Positions 1 to 5,775 of a stretch of 5,775 nucleotides of DNA are shown here, in pieces (the first letter of the stretch is position 1; each line of letters starts with the position of its first letter). The notes beneath the pieces were generated by a model. That model did no database searches and had not been told where the DNA came from. It saw nothing but the letters and a program-made list of their open reading frames with translations. Origin of the DNA: a virus. Lineage: Duplodnaviria > Heunggongvirae > Uroviricota > Caudoviricetes. A program made the position numbers and the translations under genes. Location: IMG/VR virus record IMGVR_UViG_2740892442_000009; one strand, written 5' to 3'.

Positions 1-1590
1 CCAGGCATTACAGGTGATGCGCGGCTCCGTGCCGCCAAAGCCGTCCGGCACCGACTGGTCGCAGTACTGGCCGATGACATACAGCGCCCATTTATCCACA
101 TCCGACGCACCAAGACGTTTTCCCATGCCGTAGCGCGGATGGGTCAGCATATCCCACAGACACCAGGCCATGTTGTTGCTGTATGCTGGCTTAAACGTTC
201 CGTCCCAGATACCGCTGTATTGTCGCGTCTGCGGGTTATAGTTCGACGGCACCTGCAGAATGCGCCCGCGAAGATGATAATTACGACTCACCTGCTGGCT
301 GCCGAACTGCTCCGAGTCCACCTGTACGCCGACCAGTGCCGTGTTCGGGTAGCACTGTTTCACATCGATGATTTCGGTGTATGACGACCAGAGCGTTTTG
401 TTCTGCAGCTGGTCTGTGGTGCTGTCCGGCGTCATCCTGCGCATCCGGATATTAAACGGGCGCGGCGGCAGGTTATCCACCACCACCGAGGCCAGATACT
501 GCGAGGTGGTTTTGCCTTTAATGGTGATGTCTTTTTCCGTCACCCAGCCACCGTTACGCTGTATCTGAACCAGCAGGCGGACTTCCGACGGATTCCGGTC
601 CCCCTTTGAGGTGGTTTCCACCAGTGCCTGCACACCGAAGGTAAAGCGCAGACGGTCGATGTTTGCAGACGTGATGGTCCGGGTAATCGGCGTGTCGTAC
701 TTCACTTCCGTACCCAGCACCGTCTCGGAGCCGGAGGATTCAAATCCCTCCGGCGGTGTCTGCTCCTGCTCACCGGCCCGGAACACCACCGTGACACCGG
801 AGATATTGGTATTCCCCTCCCCGCCATGCATGATCTCCACCATGCGCTGCGTCATTCGGACAAATCCATTTTCAATAGCCTGCTGATAATCAATGATCAC
901 CAGCGCCGACTCCTCGAAAAGGCACTGAATTTCAGCGGGGGCATGAGCGTAATAGTCCGCAATTCTGCTGAAATTAAACACCGTGTGACGTTCTGCCGCA
1001 CACAGGAGGAATTTCTCAATATCAGGATCAAGGGACGCCGAACGTATCCGGCTGATCAGCTCCTGAGTTTTCGTATCGTCGTACAGTTCACTGATATCCG
1101 GTTTACCGCCCGACGGCTCATAAACAGGCGTATCAATTTTCGTCGTATACGGCTCCTCCTTATTTCCTATACCGGGCAAAACATCCGTCAACAGTTCATC
1201 AATTTCTGTCGGGCCGAAGCCTGTCAGGGAGACATCAAAATCAGCATTGATTAGGACCGACAGCTCCATCCGCAACAGATCTTCATCCCAGCCAGCATTC
1301 ATCGGTAGGCGATTATCTGCCAAGCGGTACGCCTTTTTCTGCTCATCCGTCAGGCCAGACAGAACAATGACCGGAACAGAATCCATTTTGAGCATTTCAG
1401 CCGCCATAACACGACCGTGACCCGCAATAATTTCGCCCTTTTCGTCAATCAGCACCGGATTAGTCCAGCCGAATTGCTTAATACTTTCTACCAGTTGTGC
1501 CACCTGCTCAGTACTGTGCGTCCTGGCGTTGTGCGCATACGGTGACAATTCTTGTAATGGGCGATAGACTATCTTTAATTTCTCGCTCAT
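1..1590 (-). CDS. Chimeric ORF (5' end complete, 3' end runs off the window): ParB-like N-terminal nuclease-domain protein fused in frame to lambda J-like tail tip / host-specificity protein
   Basis: ATG at 1590..1588 (minus) with a weak SD (AAGG, 1598..1595). I translated the minus strand by hand and found an uninterrupted frame of 530 codons to position 1. The N-terminus (MSEKLKIVYRPLQELSPYAHNARTHSTEQVAQLVESIKQFGWTNPVLIDEKGEIIAGHGRVMAAEMLKMDSVPVIVLSGLTDEQKKAYRLADNRL...) has the hallmarks of the ParB N-terminal domain, followed by a WDEDLL...TGFGPTEIDELL linker seen in phage ParB-domain proteins. From about codon 258 (EGNTNISGVTVVFRAGEQEQTPPEGFESSGSETVLGTEVKYDTPITRTITSANIDRLRFTFGVQALVETTSKGDRNPSEVRLLVQIQRNGGWVTEK...) it matches my recollection of phage lambda J from roughly residue 55 onward. 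The six plus-strand ORFs in the track at 139-1254 are antisense to this frame. Confidence 0.8.
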   Translation of the reverse strand, partial: MSEKLKIVYRPLQELSPYAHNARTHSTEQVAQLVESIKQFGWTNPVLIDEKGEIIAGHGRVMAAEMLKMDSVPVIVLSGLTDEQKKAYRLADNRLPMNAGWDEDLLRMELSVLINADFDVSLTGFGPTEIDELLTDVLPGIGNKEEPYTTKIDTPVYEPSGGKPDISELYDDTKTQELISRIRSASLDPDIEKFLLCAAERHTVFNFSRIADYYAHAPAEIQCLFEESALVIIDYQQAIENGFVRMTQRMVEIMHGGEGNTNISGVTVVFRAGEQEQTPPEGFESSGSETVLGTEVKYDTPITRTITSANIDRLRFTFGVQALVETTSKGDRNPSEVRLLVQIQRNGGWVTEKDITIKGKTTSQYLASVVVDNLPPRPFNIRMRRMTPDSTTDQLQNKTLWSSYTEIIDVKQCYPNTALVGVQVDSEQFGSQQVSRNYHLRGRILQVPSNYNPQTRQYSGIWDGTFKPAYSNNMAWCLWDMLTHPRYGMGKRLGASDVDKWALYVIGQYCDQSVPDGFGGTEPRITCNAW

Positions 1591-1602
1591 ACAGCCTTGC
1601 TT

Positions 1603-1644
1603 TATGAATAAAACGCACCCCAGCAGCCAGTGCTACTGGGGGCG
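1603..1644 (-). terminator. Rho-independent terminator downstream of trkG
   Basis: On the minus strand: CGCCCCCAGTAGC / ACTG loop / GCTGCTGGGGTGCG (about 13 bp of GC-rich stem with one bulged base), immediately followed by TTTTATTCAT. The plus strand has no T-tract after the hairpin, so it is unidirectional for the minus strand. Confidence 0.6.
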
Positions 1645-1727
1645 GAGGTGTTGCTGGTAAAGTTAGGTATTGGATCAATGAGTGAGTCAATATAATATTA
1701 AACTCACAATTATAAATCAGCCATATA

Positions 1728-3184
1728 TTAGGAGCGCCAAAAAAAAACTGAAAACAATATAATAACAGGATAAATTTCAAGGCGACCAAGAATCATAGCT
1801 ATGCACATTAAATATTTTGCAATGTCATTAAGCACTCCGAATGACGATGCAGTAGCCCCAAAACCTAATCCCATATTATTAATACATGCAGCCACTGTTG
1901 CAAATGATGTAAGAAAATCATATCCCATACCATTTAACACCAGTATAAAAAACACCGTGAAGAGAGTATAAAGAAAAAAGAAACTCCATACAGACCTCAT
2001 TACACGATCTGTAACTATCTTCCCTCCTACATTTACACTCAACAACGCTCTGGGATGAGAAAGCTGATTTATCTCGTGTTTGCTTTGTTTGAAAAGTATA
2101 AGAAATCGAAGTGACTTAATTCCACCACAAGTTGAACCTATACATCCCCCAAAGAAACTTGACAACAGCAAAAACACTATCGTGTGCGTGGGCCAGTTTG
2201 CATAATCTTGCGTAGCTAAACCATTATCAGTGAGCATGGAGCTGGCAAGAAAAAACGAATGAATAAAACTTCCATGCAAGTCATACATACCTATATGCCA
2301 GACCTGGAAAGAGGTAACAATGATCACCACTAAGGCTATTAACAGAAAGAAACGAAGTTCAATATCTCTGATTAAAGGTTTTATCGTTTTTCTGCTAATA
2401 ACAATATACCAAAGAGTAAAGTTGAAAGCCGATAGCAGGGAAAAAGCACCAGCCACCAGCTCAACCAAATAGTTATTAAAATATCCGATACTCTCGCTAT
2501 GAGTTGAGAAACCACCAAGCGAAACTGTGGAAATCCCGTGACAAATAGCATCAAACAAAGGCATTCCTGCAAGTCTATAACAGACAATACAAGCAATACC
2601 TAATAAAGAATAAGTTATCCACAGTGTCCGTGACGTATCGGCCAGGCGGGGAGTGAGTTTGTCATCCTTAAATGGCCCCGGCATTTCTGACTGATAAAGC
2701 TTTGCACCACCAATACCCAATAATGGCAATACTGCAACCGCCAGAACAATAACTCCTAAACCACCTATAAAATTTAACTGTGACCGATAGTACAAATATG
2801 CCCGAGGTAATGAACTAACATCATCAATTACAGTTGCTCCTGTTGTTGTTATTCCAGAAACCCCTTCAAACAGAGCATCAATGAACGTTAAATTAAGTTC
2901 TGAGTCAATCCATAAAGGGAATGCACTAATAACAGAAAACAAAATCCAAAACATTACAATTATAATAAACCCATCACGGTACGTAATTGAATGCCAGATT
3001 TCTTAGTTGTATACCACGCTCCGCCACCAATGCAAAAAAATATAACGAAAGTTATAAAGAAAACGAACAGGCTTTTTTCTTTATAAAACAATGCTACAAC
3101 CATTGGTGGCAACATTGAAAGACTATAGAGCCAAACCAGGAACCCACACATATGAGTAACAACTCTTACATGAGATGTATTCAT
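1728..3184 (-). pseudogene. trkG: TrkG/TrkH-family potassium uptake protein, disrupted by a 1-bp frameshift (prophage moron)
   Basis: Two same-strand ORFs in different frames. ATG at 3184..3182 gives MNTSHVRVVTHMCGFLVWLYSLSMLPPMVVALFYKEKSLFVFFITFVIFFCIGGGAWYTTKKSGIQLRT and then terminates (VMGLL*, stop at 2962..2960); the track's TTG start at 3202 is 6 codons upstream. The second frame (408 aa, 1728..2954) is open upstream of its ATG and reads RDGFIIIV-MFWILFSVISAFPLW..., continuing the same multi-pass membrane protein. Joining the pieces gives 69 + 8 + 408 = 485 aa, the length I recall for E. coli TrkG. One base appears to be missing from a G-run at plus 2978-2979 (ACGGT where ACGGGT would restore the frame). 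The region is markedly AT-rich relative to its flanks. Confidence 0.8.
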
Positions 3185-3201
3185 ATCTAAATATTCTTTC
3201 A

Positions 3202-3240
3202 ATTATAACCACCTTGCTGCAATATTATGATTATACTGTA
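3202..3240 (-). promoter_or_regulatory. Candidate sigma-70 -10 elements upstream of trkG in the AT-rich intergenic region
   Basis: Two perfect TATAAT hexamers on the minus strand (plus 3232-3237 and 3202-3207), 18-50 bp upstream of the trkG ATG. No convincing -35 partner, so this is a weak call. Confidence 0.25.
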
Positions 3241-3321
3241 TAAAATTTAACTCCTCTTAGATCTTACTTCACTGTTCCTTATGAAACAATCATCAAAATG
3301 AATCATATTGTAGTTAAGATT

Positions 3322-3786
3322 TTACTTTAAACACTGTTCGGTTATGTATTGCTGAGCACCTTCAAGTTGGGCCTGCATCATTACCAGTCGTTCCCGGAGG
3401 GTGAAATAATCCCGTTCAGCGGTGTCTGCCAGTCTGGGGGAGACTGCATTATCCACGCTGGAGGTGGCGGTGGCTTCACGCACTGACTGACAGACTGCTT
3501 TGATGCGCAACCGACGACGACCAGCGGCAACATCATCACGCAGAGCATCATTTTCAGCTTTCGCATCAGCTAACTCCTTCAGGTATTTTGCATCGAGTGC
3601 AGCAACATCACGCTGGCGTATCTGCATGTCAGTAATGATTGCGGTCGCCTGGTTGAGTTTTTCCGTCACATTATCGCGTTGCGCTTTGTAGGTAATGGCA
3701 TTATCACGGTAATGATTAACAGCCCATGACAGGCAGACGATGATGCAGATAACCAGAGCATAAATAATCACGGCAACTCTGCTCAC
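3322..3786 (-). CDS. Rz: Rz i-spanin (inner-membrane spanin subunit)
   Basis: The translation (…[37 protein letters not shown]…[90 protein letters not shown]) closely resembles lambda Rz: N-terminal TM helix followed by coiled-coil. I place the start at GTG 3786..3784, which overlaps the endolysin TGA stop (GTGA), mirroring the ATGA coupling in lambda and giving 154 aa. The track's start at 3801 is a TTG. Confidence 0.8.
3381..3566 (-). CDS. Rz1: Rz1 o-spanin (outer-membrane lipoprotein), fully embedded in Rz in the +1 frame
   Basis: ATG at 3566..3564 preceded by a strong SD (AAGGAG, 7-nt spacer). The product [61 protein letters not shown] has a lipoprotein signal with a lipobox Cys and a proline-rich mature part, and is near-identical in pattern to lambda Rz1. 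Confidence 0.85.
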
Positions 3787-4316
3787 TGCTCTATCCCCCA
3801 ACAGGCTAATGCGCTCTCCTGATCACGACGAATAACCTGACCGTAACAGTTATTTGAACGAAGGCGGCAATCGCGCCCCCTGTCCTTAATCCACCAGCGA
3901 ATCGCCTCGCAGGCACCTTTACGATCACCTGCATTCAGCCGCTTATAAAATGTCGACGGAAAACACTTAGCGGGGCCAATGTTATAGGGACAAAATGACG
4001 CGATACCCGCTTTTTGTGGTTCGGTCAGTGTTACTTTAATATTGCGATCCACCCATGCCAGCGCCTTATCACGCTCAATGGCATTAACCTGATCGCATTT
4101 TTCCTTCGTCAGCCTCATTCCCGGTATGACGGGCTTACCATCCACCATTGTGGCACCACGACAGATGGTCCATATACCGGAACCATCGCGGTATGCCGTT
4201 GTGTGGTTACCTTCTTTTTCATCCAGAAACTGGTCGAGAATATCAGGCGCAGGCGCACCGACGGCAATCAGTGCCAGAACGGCAGCCGACAGGCCGTATC
4301 TGATTTTTGCGTTCAT
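3783..4316 (-). CDS. R: Phage endolysin, GH24 (T4-lysozyme-like) with N-terminal signal-anchor-release (SAR) domain
   Basis: 177 aa. N-terminal weakly hydrophobic Gly/Ala-rich segment ([18 protein letters not shown]) typical of a SAR domain. Catalytic E-x8-D-x5-T triad present ([16 protein letters not shown]). It resembles the 177-aa R lysozymes of Stx-type lambdoid phages as I recall them. No canonical SD upstream of the ATG (…GATAAATATCCATG). Confidence 0.9.
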
Positions 4317-4421
4317 GGATATTTATCAGGATTTATCGGTTTCTGAACCCTGGATATGTTTATCTGTCCCGGCCTGTTGAATCAGGCAAGGAATAGTTAA
4401 ATACAATAGAGAGGATTATTT

Positions 4422-4694
4422 ATGGACAATAGCACCATTTCTCTACAGGAGTTGCTCGACTGCATTTCCAGGCTTCGGGATGATGTAAATGCCCTTACTG
4501 TCGCATTTTCATATCTGGCATTCTCAATTCCCAAGGAACAAATGCAACCAACACTGGCATCGCTCCAGCTTGAATCACTCAACCCCAAATGGTCCCAGCA
4601 ACAACAAAATTCTTTCAAGTGGCTGGCGGTATTACTGGAAGAAAAATATGCTGGTGAAATTACCATTTCGGCGGAGTCTTCAGTGAACCAGTAA
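4422..4694 (+). CDS. Hypothetical 90-aa protein, the only plus-strand gene candidate; convergent with and overlapping the 114-aa ORF
   Basis: ATG at 4422 preceded by a strong SD (AGAGAGG at 4408-4414, 7-nt spacer). The translation is protein-like, helical and acidic (MDNSTISLQELLDCISRLRDDVNALTVAFSYLAFSIPKEQ…) with no signal peptide or TM segment. A TTGAAT / TACAAT pair lies upstream but with poor spacing. I do not recognise the family. Confidence 0.45.
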   Translation: MDNSTISLQELLDCISRLRDDVNALTVAFSYLAFSIPKEQMQPTLASLQLESLNPKWSQQQQNSFKWLAVLLEEKYAGEITISAESSVNQ

Positions 4695-5004
4695 TTCTTC
4701 CCGGCAGTTTTCCTTTGTAGGTTATCCGCACACCCTGCGCCTCTAAAATTATGGGGCGCTTTTCCGGTGACTGCTCATCCCCTTCACATAACCCGGCAGC
4801 AACATCCAGGAAGACCTGTCTGATGCTTCTTCTGGCTGCTGCCTCATAAAACTCCAGCGCGGCACCTTCAACACGGTCCAGCGAGATGTCCAGGTCTAAA
4901 ATTTCACCGTCAAAGCGTTTTTTGTCCCGTAACGCTAAAGTTACCGTAACTTTATTCTCAAAATTGCGGATCCCTTTCACAATCAGTTCATAGTTTTGAG
5001 TCAT
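4660..5004 (-). CDS. Hypothetical 114-aa phage protein between holin and endolysin (position analogous to ydfR in the Qin prophage; family unverified)
   Basis: ATG at 5004..5002, four nucleotides after the holin TAA stop (5011..5009), with a strong SD (GGGGAGAG) inside the holin 3' end, indicating translational coupling. Soluble, charged protein (MTQNYELIVKGIRNFENKVTVTLALRDKKRFDGEILDLDISLDRVEGAALEFYEAAARRSIRQ…). Confidence 0.65.
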   Translation of the reverse strand: MTQNYELIVKGIRNFENKVTVTLALRDKKRFDGEILDLDISLDRVEGAALEFYEAAARRSIRQVFLDVAAGLCEGDEQSPEKRPIILEAQGVRITYKGKLPGRITGSLKTPPKW

Positions 5005-5008
5005 TGAA

Positions 5009-5215
5009 TTACTCTCCCCGTGCAGCCTTACGCTTATCTTCTTTAATCTTGAAATAAAGATTTGTCAGATACGTCAACAGGCCAAACACCAGACTACCCA
5101 GCACACCTATTGCTGCCCACTGTGAGGGCGTGACTCTATCGAGCAACTGTAAAAACCAGTAGCCAGCACTGCCTGCGGAGGTGCCATAGGCGACACCTGT
5201 TGTTAACTTATCCAT
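5009..5215 (-). CDS. S: Class II holin, phage-21 S-like pinholin
   Basis: 68 aa ([68 protein letters not shown]) with two TM segments and a charged C-terminal tail. It is near-identical in pattern to the phage 21 S68 pinholin as I recall it, and pinholins partner with SAR endolysins like the one present here. Confidence 0.9.
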
Positions 5216-5275
5216 GGATTAAGGACCACCAGCCCAAGCTCAGGCACCAGAACAGGTCTAAGTAATACCCGCACG

Positions 5276-5548
5276 TTACCTCCAGATCCGTTGCTGGAAA
5301 GTGCGGGACGGACGTGGTGGGCGTTCGGAATAAGGCAGCCTGACAGAGATTATCCAGTGCCGATAGTCGAGACTGAGAGCTTTCTTAACCTCGAACCCGC
5401 GCCTGCGGTAAGAATGAATCAGCCATTCGGCCTGTTCTTCAGTACATGGTGGGTGTTGGTACCAGTCGGTTTTAAATGCGTGTGAACGCCGCTCATGCCG
5501 GATGGCAAGGTCGGTATCAGAATTGTGAAATTTGGTTTTGTGCGCCAT
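5276..5548 (-). CDS. Hypothetical small basic protein (90 aa) upstream of the holin
   Basis: ATG at 5548..5546 with a weak purine-rich SD (AGAGAAAACAG). Basic, His/Arg-rich product (MAHKTKFHNSDTDLAIRHERRSHAFKTDWYQHPPCTEEQAEWLIHSYRRRGFEVKK…). It sits between a terminator and the holin, where lambdoid phages commonly carry cargo genes. Unrecognised family. Confidence 0.45.
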   Translation of the reverse strand: MAHKTKFHNSDTDLAIRHERRSHAFKTDWYQHPPCTEEQAEWLIHSYRRRGFEVKKALSLDYRHWIISVRLPYSERPPRPSRTFQQRIWR

Positions 5549-5620
5549 CTGTTTTCTCTGCTGGCGCAGCAGGTGTCAGGTGTTCAGGCTGACGTGCGAA
5601 TTGTAAACCAGAATGCCAGG

Positions 5621-5647
5621 AAAAAACAAAACCCGCCGAAGCGGGTT
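5621..5647 (-). terminator. Rho-independent terminator on the minus strand, upstream of the lysis cassette (possible tR'-like late terminator or terminator of the upstream gene)
   Basis: Minus strand reads AACCCGC-TTCG-GCGGGTT (7-bp stem, tetraloop) followed by TTGTTTTTT. The plus strand has no T-tract after the hairpin. Confidence 0.55.
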
Positions 5648-5775
5648 AAGTGCGGGTGCGTTGAGGATGCCTGACACATCAGAGGTGGCGAGGGATTTCT
5701 CCCCCGCCAGGTCTCTTACTCCTCAGGTTCGTAAGCTGTGAAGACAGCGACCTCCGTCTGGCCGGTTCGGATTCA

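Follow-up and report, generated by a model that had tools for sequence, protein, structure and literature searches.

In phage 21, the holin gene S21 and the endolysin gene R21 are adjacent, and a dual start gives S21 two products, a 71-amino-acid (aa) antiholin and a 68-aa holin. Next to Rz, phage lambda carries bor, a lambdoid moron transcribed against the late operon, whose product Bor is a lipoprotein with a known phenotype and whose promoter has been mapped. Phage proteins that target RNase E or the degradosome include T7 gp0.7 and phiKZ Dip, and RapZ is a host protein that binds the N-terminal domain (NTD) of RNase E. We compared with these systems a lysis locus from a virus of the class Caudoviricetes, contained in a stretch of DNA of 5,775 nucleotides (IMG/VR record IMGVR_UViG_2740892442_000009; the whole stretch is hereafter called the window, with position 1 its first letter). 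In this window, the holin and endolysin genes are separated by an interval of 692 bp (4317–5008) that holds two further genes, a 114-aa gene of the ydfR family on the minus strand and a convergent 90-aa gene on the plus strand.

The closest described cassette is essQ-ydfR-rrrQ-rzpQ/rzoQ of the Qin prophage of Escherichia coli K-12. It has the same order as the window, with a 4-nt gap between the holin gene and ydfR, followed by an R21-type lysozyme gene and the spanin genes, and the Qin-type order is also that of H-19B, BP-4795, mEp460 and the Shiga toxin 2 (Stx2)-converting phage 86. A sequence-only reading of the window had pointed out that the 114-aa gene occupies the position of ydfR in Qin, and it was right in this, as the gene proved to be a member of the same family, PF07041. 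The endolysin of the window shares 90% sequence identity with K-12 RrrQ, and its YdfR is 80% identical to K-12 YdfR over the N-domain (59 of 74 residues, residues 1–74) and unrelated afterwards. In Qin, YdfR has 103 aa, a different C-terminal part and a stop codon overlapping the start of rrrQ, whereas YdfR of the window has 114 aa, with a 343-nt spacer carrying an antisense gene downstream of it. When compared to phage 21, the holin is of the same family (PF04971) and the endolysin has both the E35/D44/T50 spacing and a segment resembling a signal-anchor-release (SAR) sequence, but two genes intervene between holin and endolysin and only the 68-aa form of the holin is possible.

We consider it fairly probable that the interval represents two stacked accessory genes of lambdoid lysis cassettes, neither of them part of the lysis machinery: ydfR, encoding a modulator acting on RNA, and a moron-like 90-aa gene. 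According to this proposal, ydfR would be transcribed as part of the late lysis operon, with its translation coupled to the holin stop, and its product, expressed late, would modulate host RNA decay or the processing of late mRNA. A low-GC cassette of ~280 bp, joined at the last codons of ydfR, would bring in the antisense 90-aa gene with its own ribosome-binding site; this gene would be expressed independently, with the resident prophage as the probable source, and the protein would bind a host or phage protein. The anatomy of the cassette is settled: it contains ydfR and, optionally, an antisense gene that sits on a low-GC segment at the ydfR 3' end. All coordinates given by the sequence-only reading for the holin, the endolysin, the gap and the two open reading frames (ORFs) within it hold, and both of the extra genes that it had noticed match profile families over their full length. 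Its view of the interval as one insertion of ~700 bp needs amending, as the extra DNA is real but comes in two layers, a standard ydfR gene and a separate segment of ~280 bp.

The ydfR gene of the window (4660–5004, minus strand, 114 aa) was found to match PF07041 (DUF1327; E=8e-42), with 141.8 bits against a cut-off of 25 over residues 1–112, as well as phrog_406 (E=5e-66), and it is annotated in RefSeq as ‘YdfR family protein’. The ATG is positioned 4 nt past the TAA of the holin gene, with a GGAG 7–9 nt upstream that lies inside the last holin codons, and the start of ydfR is translationally coupled to the holin stop, in agreement with the sequence-only reading. The encoded protein is basic (pI 8.8) and has no transmembrane segment (maximum 19-residue Kyte-Doolittle mean 0.69). 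AlphaFold2 (AF2) predicted an N-domain of b-b-b-a-a topology at moderate confidence and a C-terminal part at low confidence; the models of both YdfR and the 90-aa protein are soluble folds. As in Qin and in phages, YdfR is encoded between the S21-type holin and lysozyme genes of a lambdoid late operon. DNA resembling ydfR was detected at 8617 places in 4349 of 5426 complete E. coli genomes, with at least 80% of the gene present in 1906 genomes, and 101 of 50,697 phage records encode YdfR, among them the four phages named above and many Stx1a and Stx2c phages. A lysis cassette ‘split’ by ydfR is therefore a normal and very common architecture.

In the literature on DUF1327, ydfR and genes located between holin and endolysin, the sole functional information found was a study of RNase E from 2026 (PMC13232886, RNA Biol 2026). 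K-12 YdfR came out of a two-hybrid screen and binds the N-terminal catalytic half of RNase E, the interaction surface being mapped within YdfR residues 1–72 (PMC13232886). In pull-downs, K-12 YdfR recovered Rne 1–598, and DNase-resistant nucleic acid co-purified with it (PMC13232886). The same paper lists YdfR as cytoplasmic and cites a genetic screen that linked ydfR to envelope integrity (PMC13232886). Since the N-domain of the K-12 homologue binds RNase E and co-purifies with RNA, YdfR is most likely a modulator of RNA decay, with a role as a partner of holin or endolysin being less likely; these assignments are transferred by homology, and the window allele would likewise be expected to bind RNase E. 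The binding of K-12 YdfR to the catalytic half of RNase E and its co-purification with RNA (PMC13232886) also constitute the likeness to the RNase E-targeting proteins introduced above, and by analogy suggest a phage-encoded modulator of RNA decay.

The 90-aa gene (4422–4694, plus strand) belongs to the phrog_2411 family, its residues 1–90 aligning with positions 1–90 of the 90-position profile (E=3e-59), and is found in RefSeq as WP_000370551.1, a ‘hypothetical protein’. It is preceded by a Shine-Dalgarno (SD) sequence, AGAGAGGA (4408–4415, plus strand), with the GAGG at 4411–4414 placed 7 nt 5' of the ATG, and it is convergent with ydfR, overlapping the ydfR 3' end by 35 nt. The protein (10.2 kDa) is acidic (pI 4.4) and soluble (maximum 19-residue Kyte-Doolittle mean 0.88), and was predicted by AF2 to form a three-helix bundle with a disordered tail comprising residues 81–90 (predicted local distance difference test score 81.8). 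A homologue search with the protein returned 64 clusters of 70–98% identity, nearly all full-length members being 90 aa long; the named sources were Escherichia, Shigella and E. albertii, plus one short partial sequence labelled Pseudomonas sp. No match was returned when viral contigs were searched with the most divergent allele of the E. coli type. The 171 loci that were fetched comprise 34 distinct DNA alleles, 31 of them intact and none with an indel; the disrupted versions of the plus-strand ORF amount to three nonsense alleles and a few frameshifted clusters. The reading frame is kept across diverged alleles, a point on which the sequence-only reading had made the status of this ORF depend.

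Codon-position and pooled dN/dS (the ratio of nonsynonymous to synonymous rates) analyses were restricted to the part of the gene that does not overlap ydfR. Variable sites at codon positions 1, 2 and 3 numbered 29, 22 and 49 (chi-square p=0.003) and the minimum changes 36, 22 and 65 (p=8e-6), with a pooled dN/dS of 0.29; pairwise values ranged between 0.13 and 0.66. A profile search of 1.84 billion representative proteins further revealed distant relatives of 81–97 aa with 28–47% identity, which have a core motif in common (ELL..I..LR..VN.L.VAFSYLAFS...E...TI.AL.FES.N). The three relatives that were scanned (P0187, P0193 and P0195) all match phrog_2411, and a genome scan located relatives in Yersinia massiliensis, Citrobacter meridianamericanus and Escherichia ruysiae. 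The plus-strand ORF is a genuine gene under purifying selection.

The minus strand carries an 89-aa ORF (4397–4666) that mirrors the 90-aa gene and whose ATG overlaps the ydfR stop (ATGGTAA). This ORF is not conserved: the commonest clade has a stop at its codon 23, another clade has one at codon 63, and further clades lack its ATG. The 90-codon plus frame is kept in the clades where the minus ORF is broken. Its apparent dN/dS of 0.21 is low because its third codon positions are common to the plus-strand frame. Position 2 varies more than position 1 in the minus frame, the opposite of a coding frame, and is the least variable position in the plus-strand frame only. The 89-aa ORF is the shadow of the plus-strand gene and was rejected as a real, ydfR-coupled gene, as it is truncated or startless in most clades and has the wrong codon-position pattern.

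Searches against Pfam, PHROG, NCBIfam and PADLOC placed neither YdfR nor the 90-aa protein in a characterized family, an outcome that the sequence-only reading had also treated as informative. For the 90-aa protein, no match was obtained in Pfam, NCBIfam or PADLOC or with PDB sequence profiles, and a Pfam scan of 12 diverse members of its family gave nothing below E=0.02. PADLOC models did not match YdfR, the 90-aa protein or the protein encoded at 5276–5548 at E values up to 1, and no known RNA families were found in 4317–5008.

Alignment with the segment-free phage PhiR40_1 defined the core of the presence/absence segment, ~280 bp in length (4382–4664), into which most of the 90-aa gene falls. 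The boundaries of the core are uncertain by a few bases, and the 39 nt at 4343–4381 also differ between loci with and without the segment. The GC content of the core is 42.4%, compared to 47.8% in ydfR and 51.5% in the lysozyme gene. The segment meets ydfR at its last 2–3 codons, so that YdfR ends in ...PPKW where the segment is present and in ...PPESQP where it is not. A comparison of cassette spacing across relatives gave a distance from ydfR to the lysozyme gene of 343 bp in the window and 63 bp in PhiR40_1, while the two genes overlap in Qin. The last ~9 codons and the stop of the 90-aa gene are common ydfR sequence read backwards, which fits the disordered tail predicted for residues 81–90.

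The segment was present in 1221 of the 5426 complete E. coli genomes, at 1355 places corresponding to ~16% of the 8617 ydfR places, with BLR(DE3), NEBExpress, ATCC 8739 and ST131 EC958 among the carriers. It was found in three of the 101 YdfR-bearing phage records (Chlobot, PP925838; vB_EcoS-783R2; and phiSTEC1575-Stx2k), a lower frequency than at the genomic places, although this enrichment in prophages is only suggestive because a few Stx-phage lineages predominate among the phage records. In a search with the segment at the DNA level, a PGAP ‘hypothetical protein’ lay under 39 of 40 sampled matches.

The junction at which the segment sits is variable also in its absence. The ends of YdfR diverge right after ...GSLKTPP (4660–4672, minus strand) or, in Qin, after residue 74, and at least four alternative ends were distinguished (examples are found in P0072, P0087, P0091 and L262:4058–4366). 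These are the short end ...ESQP followed by the 63-bp spacer, as in PhiR40_1; the end ...KW followed by the antisense cassette, as in the window; an in-frame helical extension of 62–69 aa giving forms of 176 and 183 aa; and the different C-terminal part of Qin, with a stop overlapping the rrrQ start. The ydfR 3' end thus looks like a recombination hot spot. The notion that the cassette is an inverted copy of the 62–69-aa C-terminal extension was rejected, no similarity being found between them. Insertion sequences (IS) have hit the region repeatedly (L174, 1233–2446; L170, 3201–4429): in one strain the 90-aa gene is split at codon 13 by an element of the IS3 family, and in E. albertii another element lies between ydfR and the holin gene.

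A diverged copy of the 90-aa gene, WP_000370415.1, was found on NZ_CP178659.1 (positions 2517–2789 of locus L173) ~300 bp from iha, a siderophore receptor/adhesin gene, among IS remnants. This copy shares 75% DNA identity and 63% protein identity (over 82 residues) with the window gene and has retained all 90 codons intact together with an AGGAG site. Beside it, coding sequence for YdfR, holin and lysozyme was undetectable; what remains are short DNA traces of the lysozyme start and of a hairpin within ydfR. The best cassette match falls in the 60–80% identity band in 72 genome records, some of which may be of this iha type. Other rearrangements leave part of the cassette in place. In two loci (L165 and L166), ydfR is cut to its last 40 codons while the holin gene, the 90-aa gene and the lysozyme gene are intact, in another (L172) a different lysis cassette (holin_8, holin_3_7 and an M15 peptidase) comes after the holin gene, ydfR and the 90-aa gene, and in a Stx phage (L171) an IS66 element has taken the place of the lysozyme side and abuts the cassette.

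The distant relatives, which occur in other Enterobacterales, occupy surroundings without ydfR. In Citrobacter (L265), an antisense relative is found downstream of a pertussis-like toxin gene and immediately upstream of a cassette encoding a lambda-S holin, a CHAP endolysin and a DUF2514 spanin; a second relative (L257) is antisense upstream of terminase genes, a third (L259) is a lone chromosomal gene beside a metal ATPase, and a relative elsewhere overlaps the 3' end of a convergent small gene. The position of the 90-aa gene is not fixed, and lysis genes are not required for its presence. The gene opposes the late genes in those phage contexts whose neighbours could be assigned as such, which comprise the E. 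coli cassettes, Citrobacter, L257 and the Yersinia locus. The sequence-only reading had speculated that an insertion between holin and endolysin might carry a lysis-timing regulator; we found no evidence for this, and the copies that are intact where lysis genes are undetected, together with the relatives elsewhere, point away from a lysis-specific role of the 90-aa gene. As a separate observation, the Citrobacter meridianamericanus toxin gene (4945–5847 of that locus) encodes a pertussis-toxin S1-like ADP-ribosyltransferase and lies upstream of the holin gene in the same late region.

The 90-aa gene looks like a moron, because it is present or absent at one junction, is opposed to the late genes, has a low GC content, evolves under purifying selection and survives without lysis genes. 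Like bor, it is small, located beside lysis genes, opposed to late transcription, variably present and of lower GC content. It differs from bor in lying inside the cassette and in overlapping the 3' end of its neighbour; its protein is soluble, acidic and helical without a signal peptide, in contrast to Bor, and for its promoter and terminator there are candidates only. Given the moron-like behaviour, the 90-aa gene would most likely be self-expressed and act by protein binding.

A candidate weak sigma-70 promoter of the plus-strand unit, TTTATC-17 nt-TATGTT, is located at 4332–4360 (plus strand). Both hexamers are kept in the window and in the diverged iha-linked copy. The GATATGTT box was found in 171 of 171 segment-bearing loci (with single-base variants in two rare alleles), whereas 78 of 79 segment-free loci, which essentially form one clade, have GACAGGTT or a close variant of it in this place (one locus has GGCAGGTT), and the leader of the 79th is unrelated. 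The window and the iha copy share 73% identity over the 105 nt upstream of the 90-aa gene, with synonymous divergence between the two copies at ~1.2 substitutions per site, and the iha copy has no detectable endolysin gene that could account for this conservation. An alignment of 29 distinct upstream sequences further revealed a conserved TACAAT box (4402–4407, plus strand; TATAAT in the iha-linked copy) situated 15–20 nt 5' of the ATG; used as a −10 box, it would give a leader of ~8 nt, cutting into the SD.

Downstream, a hairpin GCGCCTC-(9 nt)-GGGGCGC followed by TTTT (4737–4763, plus strand) is a candidate terminator. It is located 42 nt past the stop of the 90-aa gene, inside the ydfR codons for EKRPIILEAQ. 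The fold of the 51-nt stretch 4725–4775 has an energy of −18.9 kcal/mol on the plus strand, with z=−3.1 against shuffled sequences, compared to z=−0.95 on the minus strand, and a homologous hairpin is retained in the iha-linked remnant, where YdfR is undetectable. As the hairpin is present in cassette-free alleles, it may be a by-product of the EKRPIILEAQ codons, and it was rejected as a cassette-specific feature. Among the relatives, some promoter- and terminator-like sites occur at suitable distances, their counts being at chance level.

A number of points weigh against the reading of the interval as two accessory genes outside the lysis machinery. For YdfR, the C-terminal 40 residues are unlike those of the K-12 protein, few K-12 transcripts were altered by YdfR overproduction (PMC13232886), and the authors of that study noted that a contaminating protein could have retained the RNA in their preparation (PMC13232886). 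For the 90-aa protein, the structure searches returned nothing specific and no informative fold match. Searches for expression of ydfR or the 90-aa gene in strains with this allele found none on record, and for the 90-aa gene neither transcriptome nor proteome data came to light. A consensus scan called no promoter or terminator for the plus-strand gene; the candidate promoter agrees with the consensus at only seven of 12 positions, its comparison with segment-free loci involves the single clade mentioned above, and the candidate terminator has a T-run of only four and is equally present in ydfR alleles without the cassette. The loci were mostly gathered via the protein itself, which favours intact copies. 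Finally, three of the five contexts without ydfR are still in prophage late regions: the Citrobacter relative directly abuts a lysis cassette, and the L257 relative is encoded just upstream of terminase genes, where a lysis cassette would fall past the end of the contig. Given these late-region contexts, the 90-aa gene may yet be linked to lysis or late transcription. It may also take part in lysis timing, or in antisense regulation of the transcript running from S to R, although no positive evidence for either was obtained.

The holin gene (5009–5215, minus strand, 68 aa) encodes an S21-type class II holin of the pinholin family (PF04971, 120 bits, E=4e-35; phrog_9876/phrog_20 holin match), named ‘phage lysis protein EssD’ by PGAP, with a maximum 19-residue Kyte-Doolittle mean of 1.72. 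An in-frame TAA is found two codons 5' of the ATG at 5215 (region 5213–5221, minus strand), and therefore only the 68-aa form is possible and no 71-aa form. Related holin alleles have 71-aa forms by virtue of an upstream start that is missing in the window allele, which lacks the dual start characteristic of the S21 antiholin. The endolysin gene (3783–4316, minus strand, 177 aa) encodes an R21-type SAR endolysin, a lysozyme (PF00959, E=1e-23; phrog_7), whose translation shows the catalytic spacing noted above after a Gly/Ala-rich N-terminal SAR-like segment. It is followed by the genes for the Rz i-spanin (3322–3801, minus strand; PF03245, E=1e-48) and, embedded in Rz, the Rz1 o-spanin (3381–3566, minus strand; PF06085, E=1e-18).

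The endolysin leader (...CAGAAACCGATAAATCCTGATAAATATCC-ATG) has no GGAG, GAGG or AGGA in the 30 nt before the start. The lack of a canonical SD noticed by the sequence-only reading is thereby confirmed, but it is general to this leader and not caused by the insertion, because the SD-less leader is identical in alleles with and without the 280-bp cassette. Its A/T-rich part (4321–4343) contains two direct GATAAAT repeats, which may act as an A/U-rich translation enhancer. An E. albertii allele has an additional third repeat, which is imperfect (GATAAAC).

We think it unlikely that the interval is instead a regulatory module for lysis or late mRNA. In such a module, antisense RNA from the 90-aa gene, fully complementary to the 343-nt spacer before the SD-less endolysin gene and to the ydfR 3' end, would silence leaky S-ydfR-R transcripts in the lysogen, either through duplex formation and RNase III cleavage or through transcriptional interference, while YdfR together with RNase E would tune transcript stability and, with it, the holin-to-endolysin ratio and the timing of lysis. 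The E. coli 90-aa gene is indeed nearly always found within a lysis cassette, convergent with and overlapping ydfR, and of the distant relatives one overlaps the 3' end of a convergent small gene and another abuts a different holin gene. The window endolysin gene has no SD and is far from the preceding stop, while in Qin the ydfR stop overlaps the rrrQ start; YdfR binds RNase E (PMC13232886); and as no canonical plus-strand terminator was found, antisense transcripts might reach ydfR and the holin gene. However, the codon positions, dN/dS and protein relatives of 28–47% identity indicate selection on a protein and not on RNA alone, intact copies of the gene exist where the lysis genes to be regulated are absent, and related phages manage with a 63-bp spacer and the same SD-less leader.

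That YdfR is itself a lysis protein, an antiholin-like factor or regulator of endolysin release that replaces the missing 71-aa antiholin, with the 90-aa protein as its antagonist, appears quite unlikely. Such a role would suit the location of ydfR between the holin and endolysin genes, and coupled to them, in thousands of prophages, the second start missing in the window holin allele, and the link of ydfR to envelope integrity in the genetic screen cited in PMC13232886. On the other hand, YdfR has neither a transmembrane nor a SAR-like segment and is listed as cytoplasmic in the same paper, a locus where ydfR is cut to its last 40 codons keeps the holin, the endolysin and the 90-aa gene, and ydfR also occurs in alleles with a 71-aa holin. 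Moreover, Pfam, PHROG and structure searches revealed no similarity of YdfR to known antiholins or lysis regulators.

A proposal joining the two genes in one two-part control module of the late lysis transcript strikes us as very unlikely. YdfR would here recruit or block RNase E on the S-ydfR-R mRNA, and the antisense unit would contribute an RNA complementary to the long spacer between S and R and/or a protein antagonist of YdfR, the lysis genes being kept silent in the lysogen and the holin-to-endolysin ratio being set after induction. Lastly, the view that the plus-strand ORF arose by chance, or shadows a minus-strand gene transcribed together with the lysis genes, is refuted: the ATGGTAA overlap, the equally low dN/dS of the minus ORF and the few nonsense and frameshifted versions of the plus ORF would suit it, but the minus ORF is truncated or without ATG in most clades where the plus ORF stays at 90 codons, position 2 is least variable in the plus frame only, distant relatives are encoded in unrelated surroundings in Yersinia, Citrobacter, E. 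ruysiae and others, and the 90-aa protein has a confident AF2 fold.

The window differs by a single base over 5775 bases from the chromosome of E. coli TUM10008 (NZ_CP135658.1) and belongs to a Rac-like lambdoid prophage, with all lysis genes on the minus strand. Beyond Rz/Rz1, trkG follows directly and then the tail-tip gene J, the prophage being truncated in this part (1–3801), with terminase and head genes absent between Rz/Rz1 and J; K-12 Rac has a related rzpR-trkG junction. At position 2980, within trkG (1728–3202, minus strand), one G of a GGG run is missing relative to NZ_CP135658.1, which splits trkG into ORFs of 80 and 408 aa, whereas the RefSeq TrkG is intact with 485 aa.

Just upstream of the holin gene, an uncharacterized 90-aa ORF of another family (5276–5548, minus strand; phrog_1212, E=4e-36) is overlapped on the opposite strand by a 59-aa ORF (5495–5674, plus strand), which is also annotated by PGAP, and the right edge of the window contains the start of a gene of the Hok/Gef family. 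At 5626–5707 (minus strand), a match to the Rfam family of isrK, an Hfq-binding small RNA, was obtained below threshold (27 bits against a gathering score of 50, E=0.007). The isrK-like element is upstream of the late and lysis genes and ends in a strong intrinsic terminator (hairpin 5630–5647, AACCCGC-TTCG-GCGGGTT plus a T-run); it may be a short leader RNA of the PR'-tR' type belonging to the prophage.

The arrangement as a whole is a common variant of the lambdoid lysis cassette, under-studied but ordinary and not a new kind of system, because annotations exist for ydfR (‘YdfR family protein’) and for the 90-aa gene (‘hypothetical protein’), and both are present in PHROGs. The current view of lysis is unchanged by these findings, whose value lies in annotation: a real gene, its shadow ORF and a variable slot. 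The S21/R21-type cassette is a textbook model of lysis timing, yet most natural E. coli copies carry the extra gene ydfR, and about one in six of the ydfR-bearing copies additionally holds the antisense 90-aa gene, which is now a defined target in common laboratory strains (the BL21 lineage, ATCC 8739 and ST131 EC958). The link between YdfR and RNase E offers a testable idea for the role of the extra gene of the cassette, and if the two genes were to form a control module, about a fifth of E. coli genomes would possess a layer of lysis control that had not been described before.

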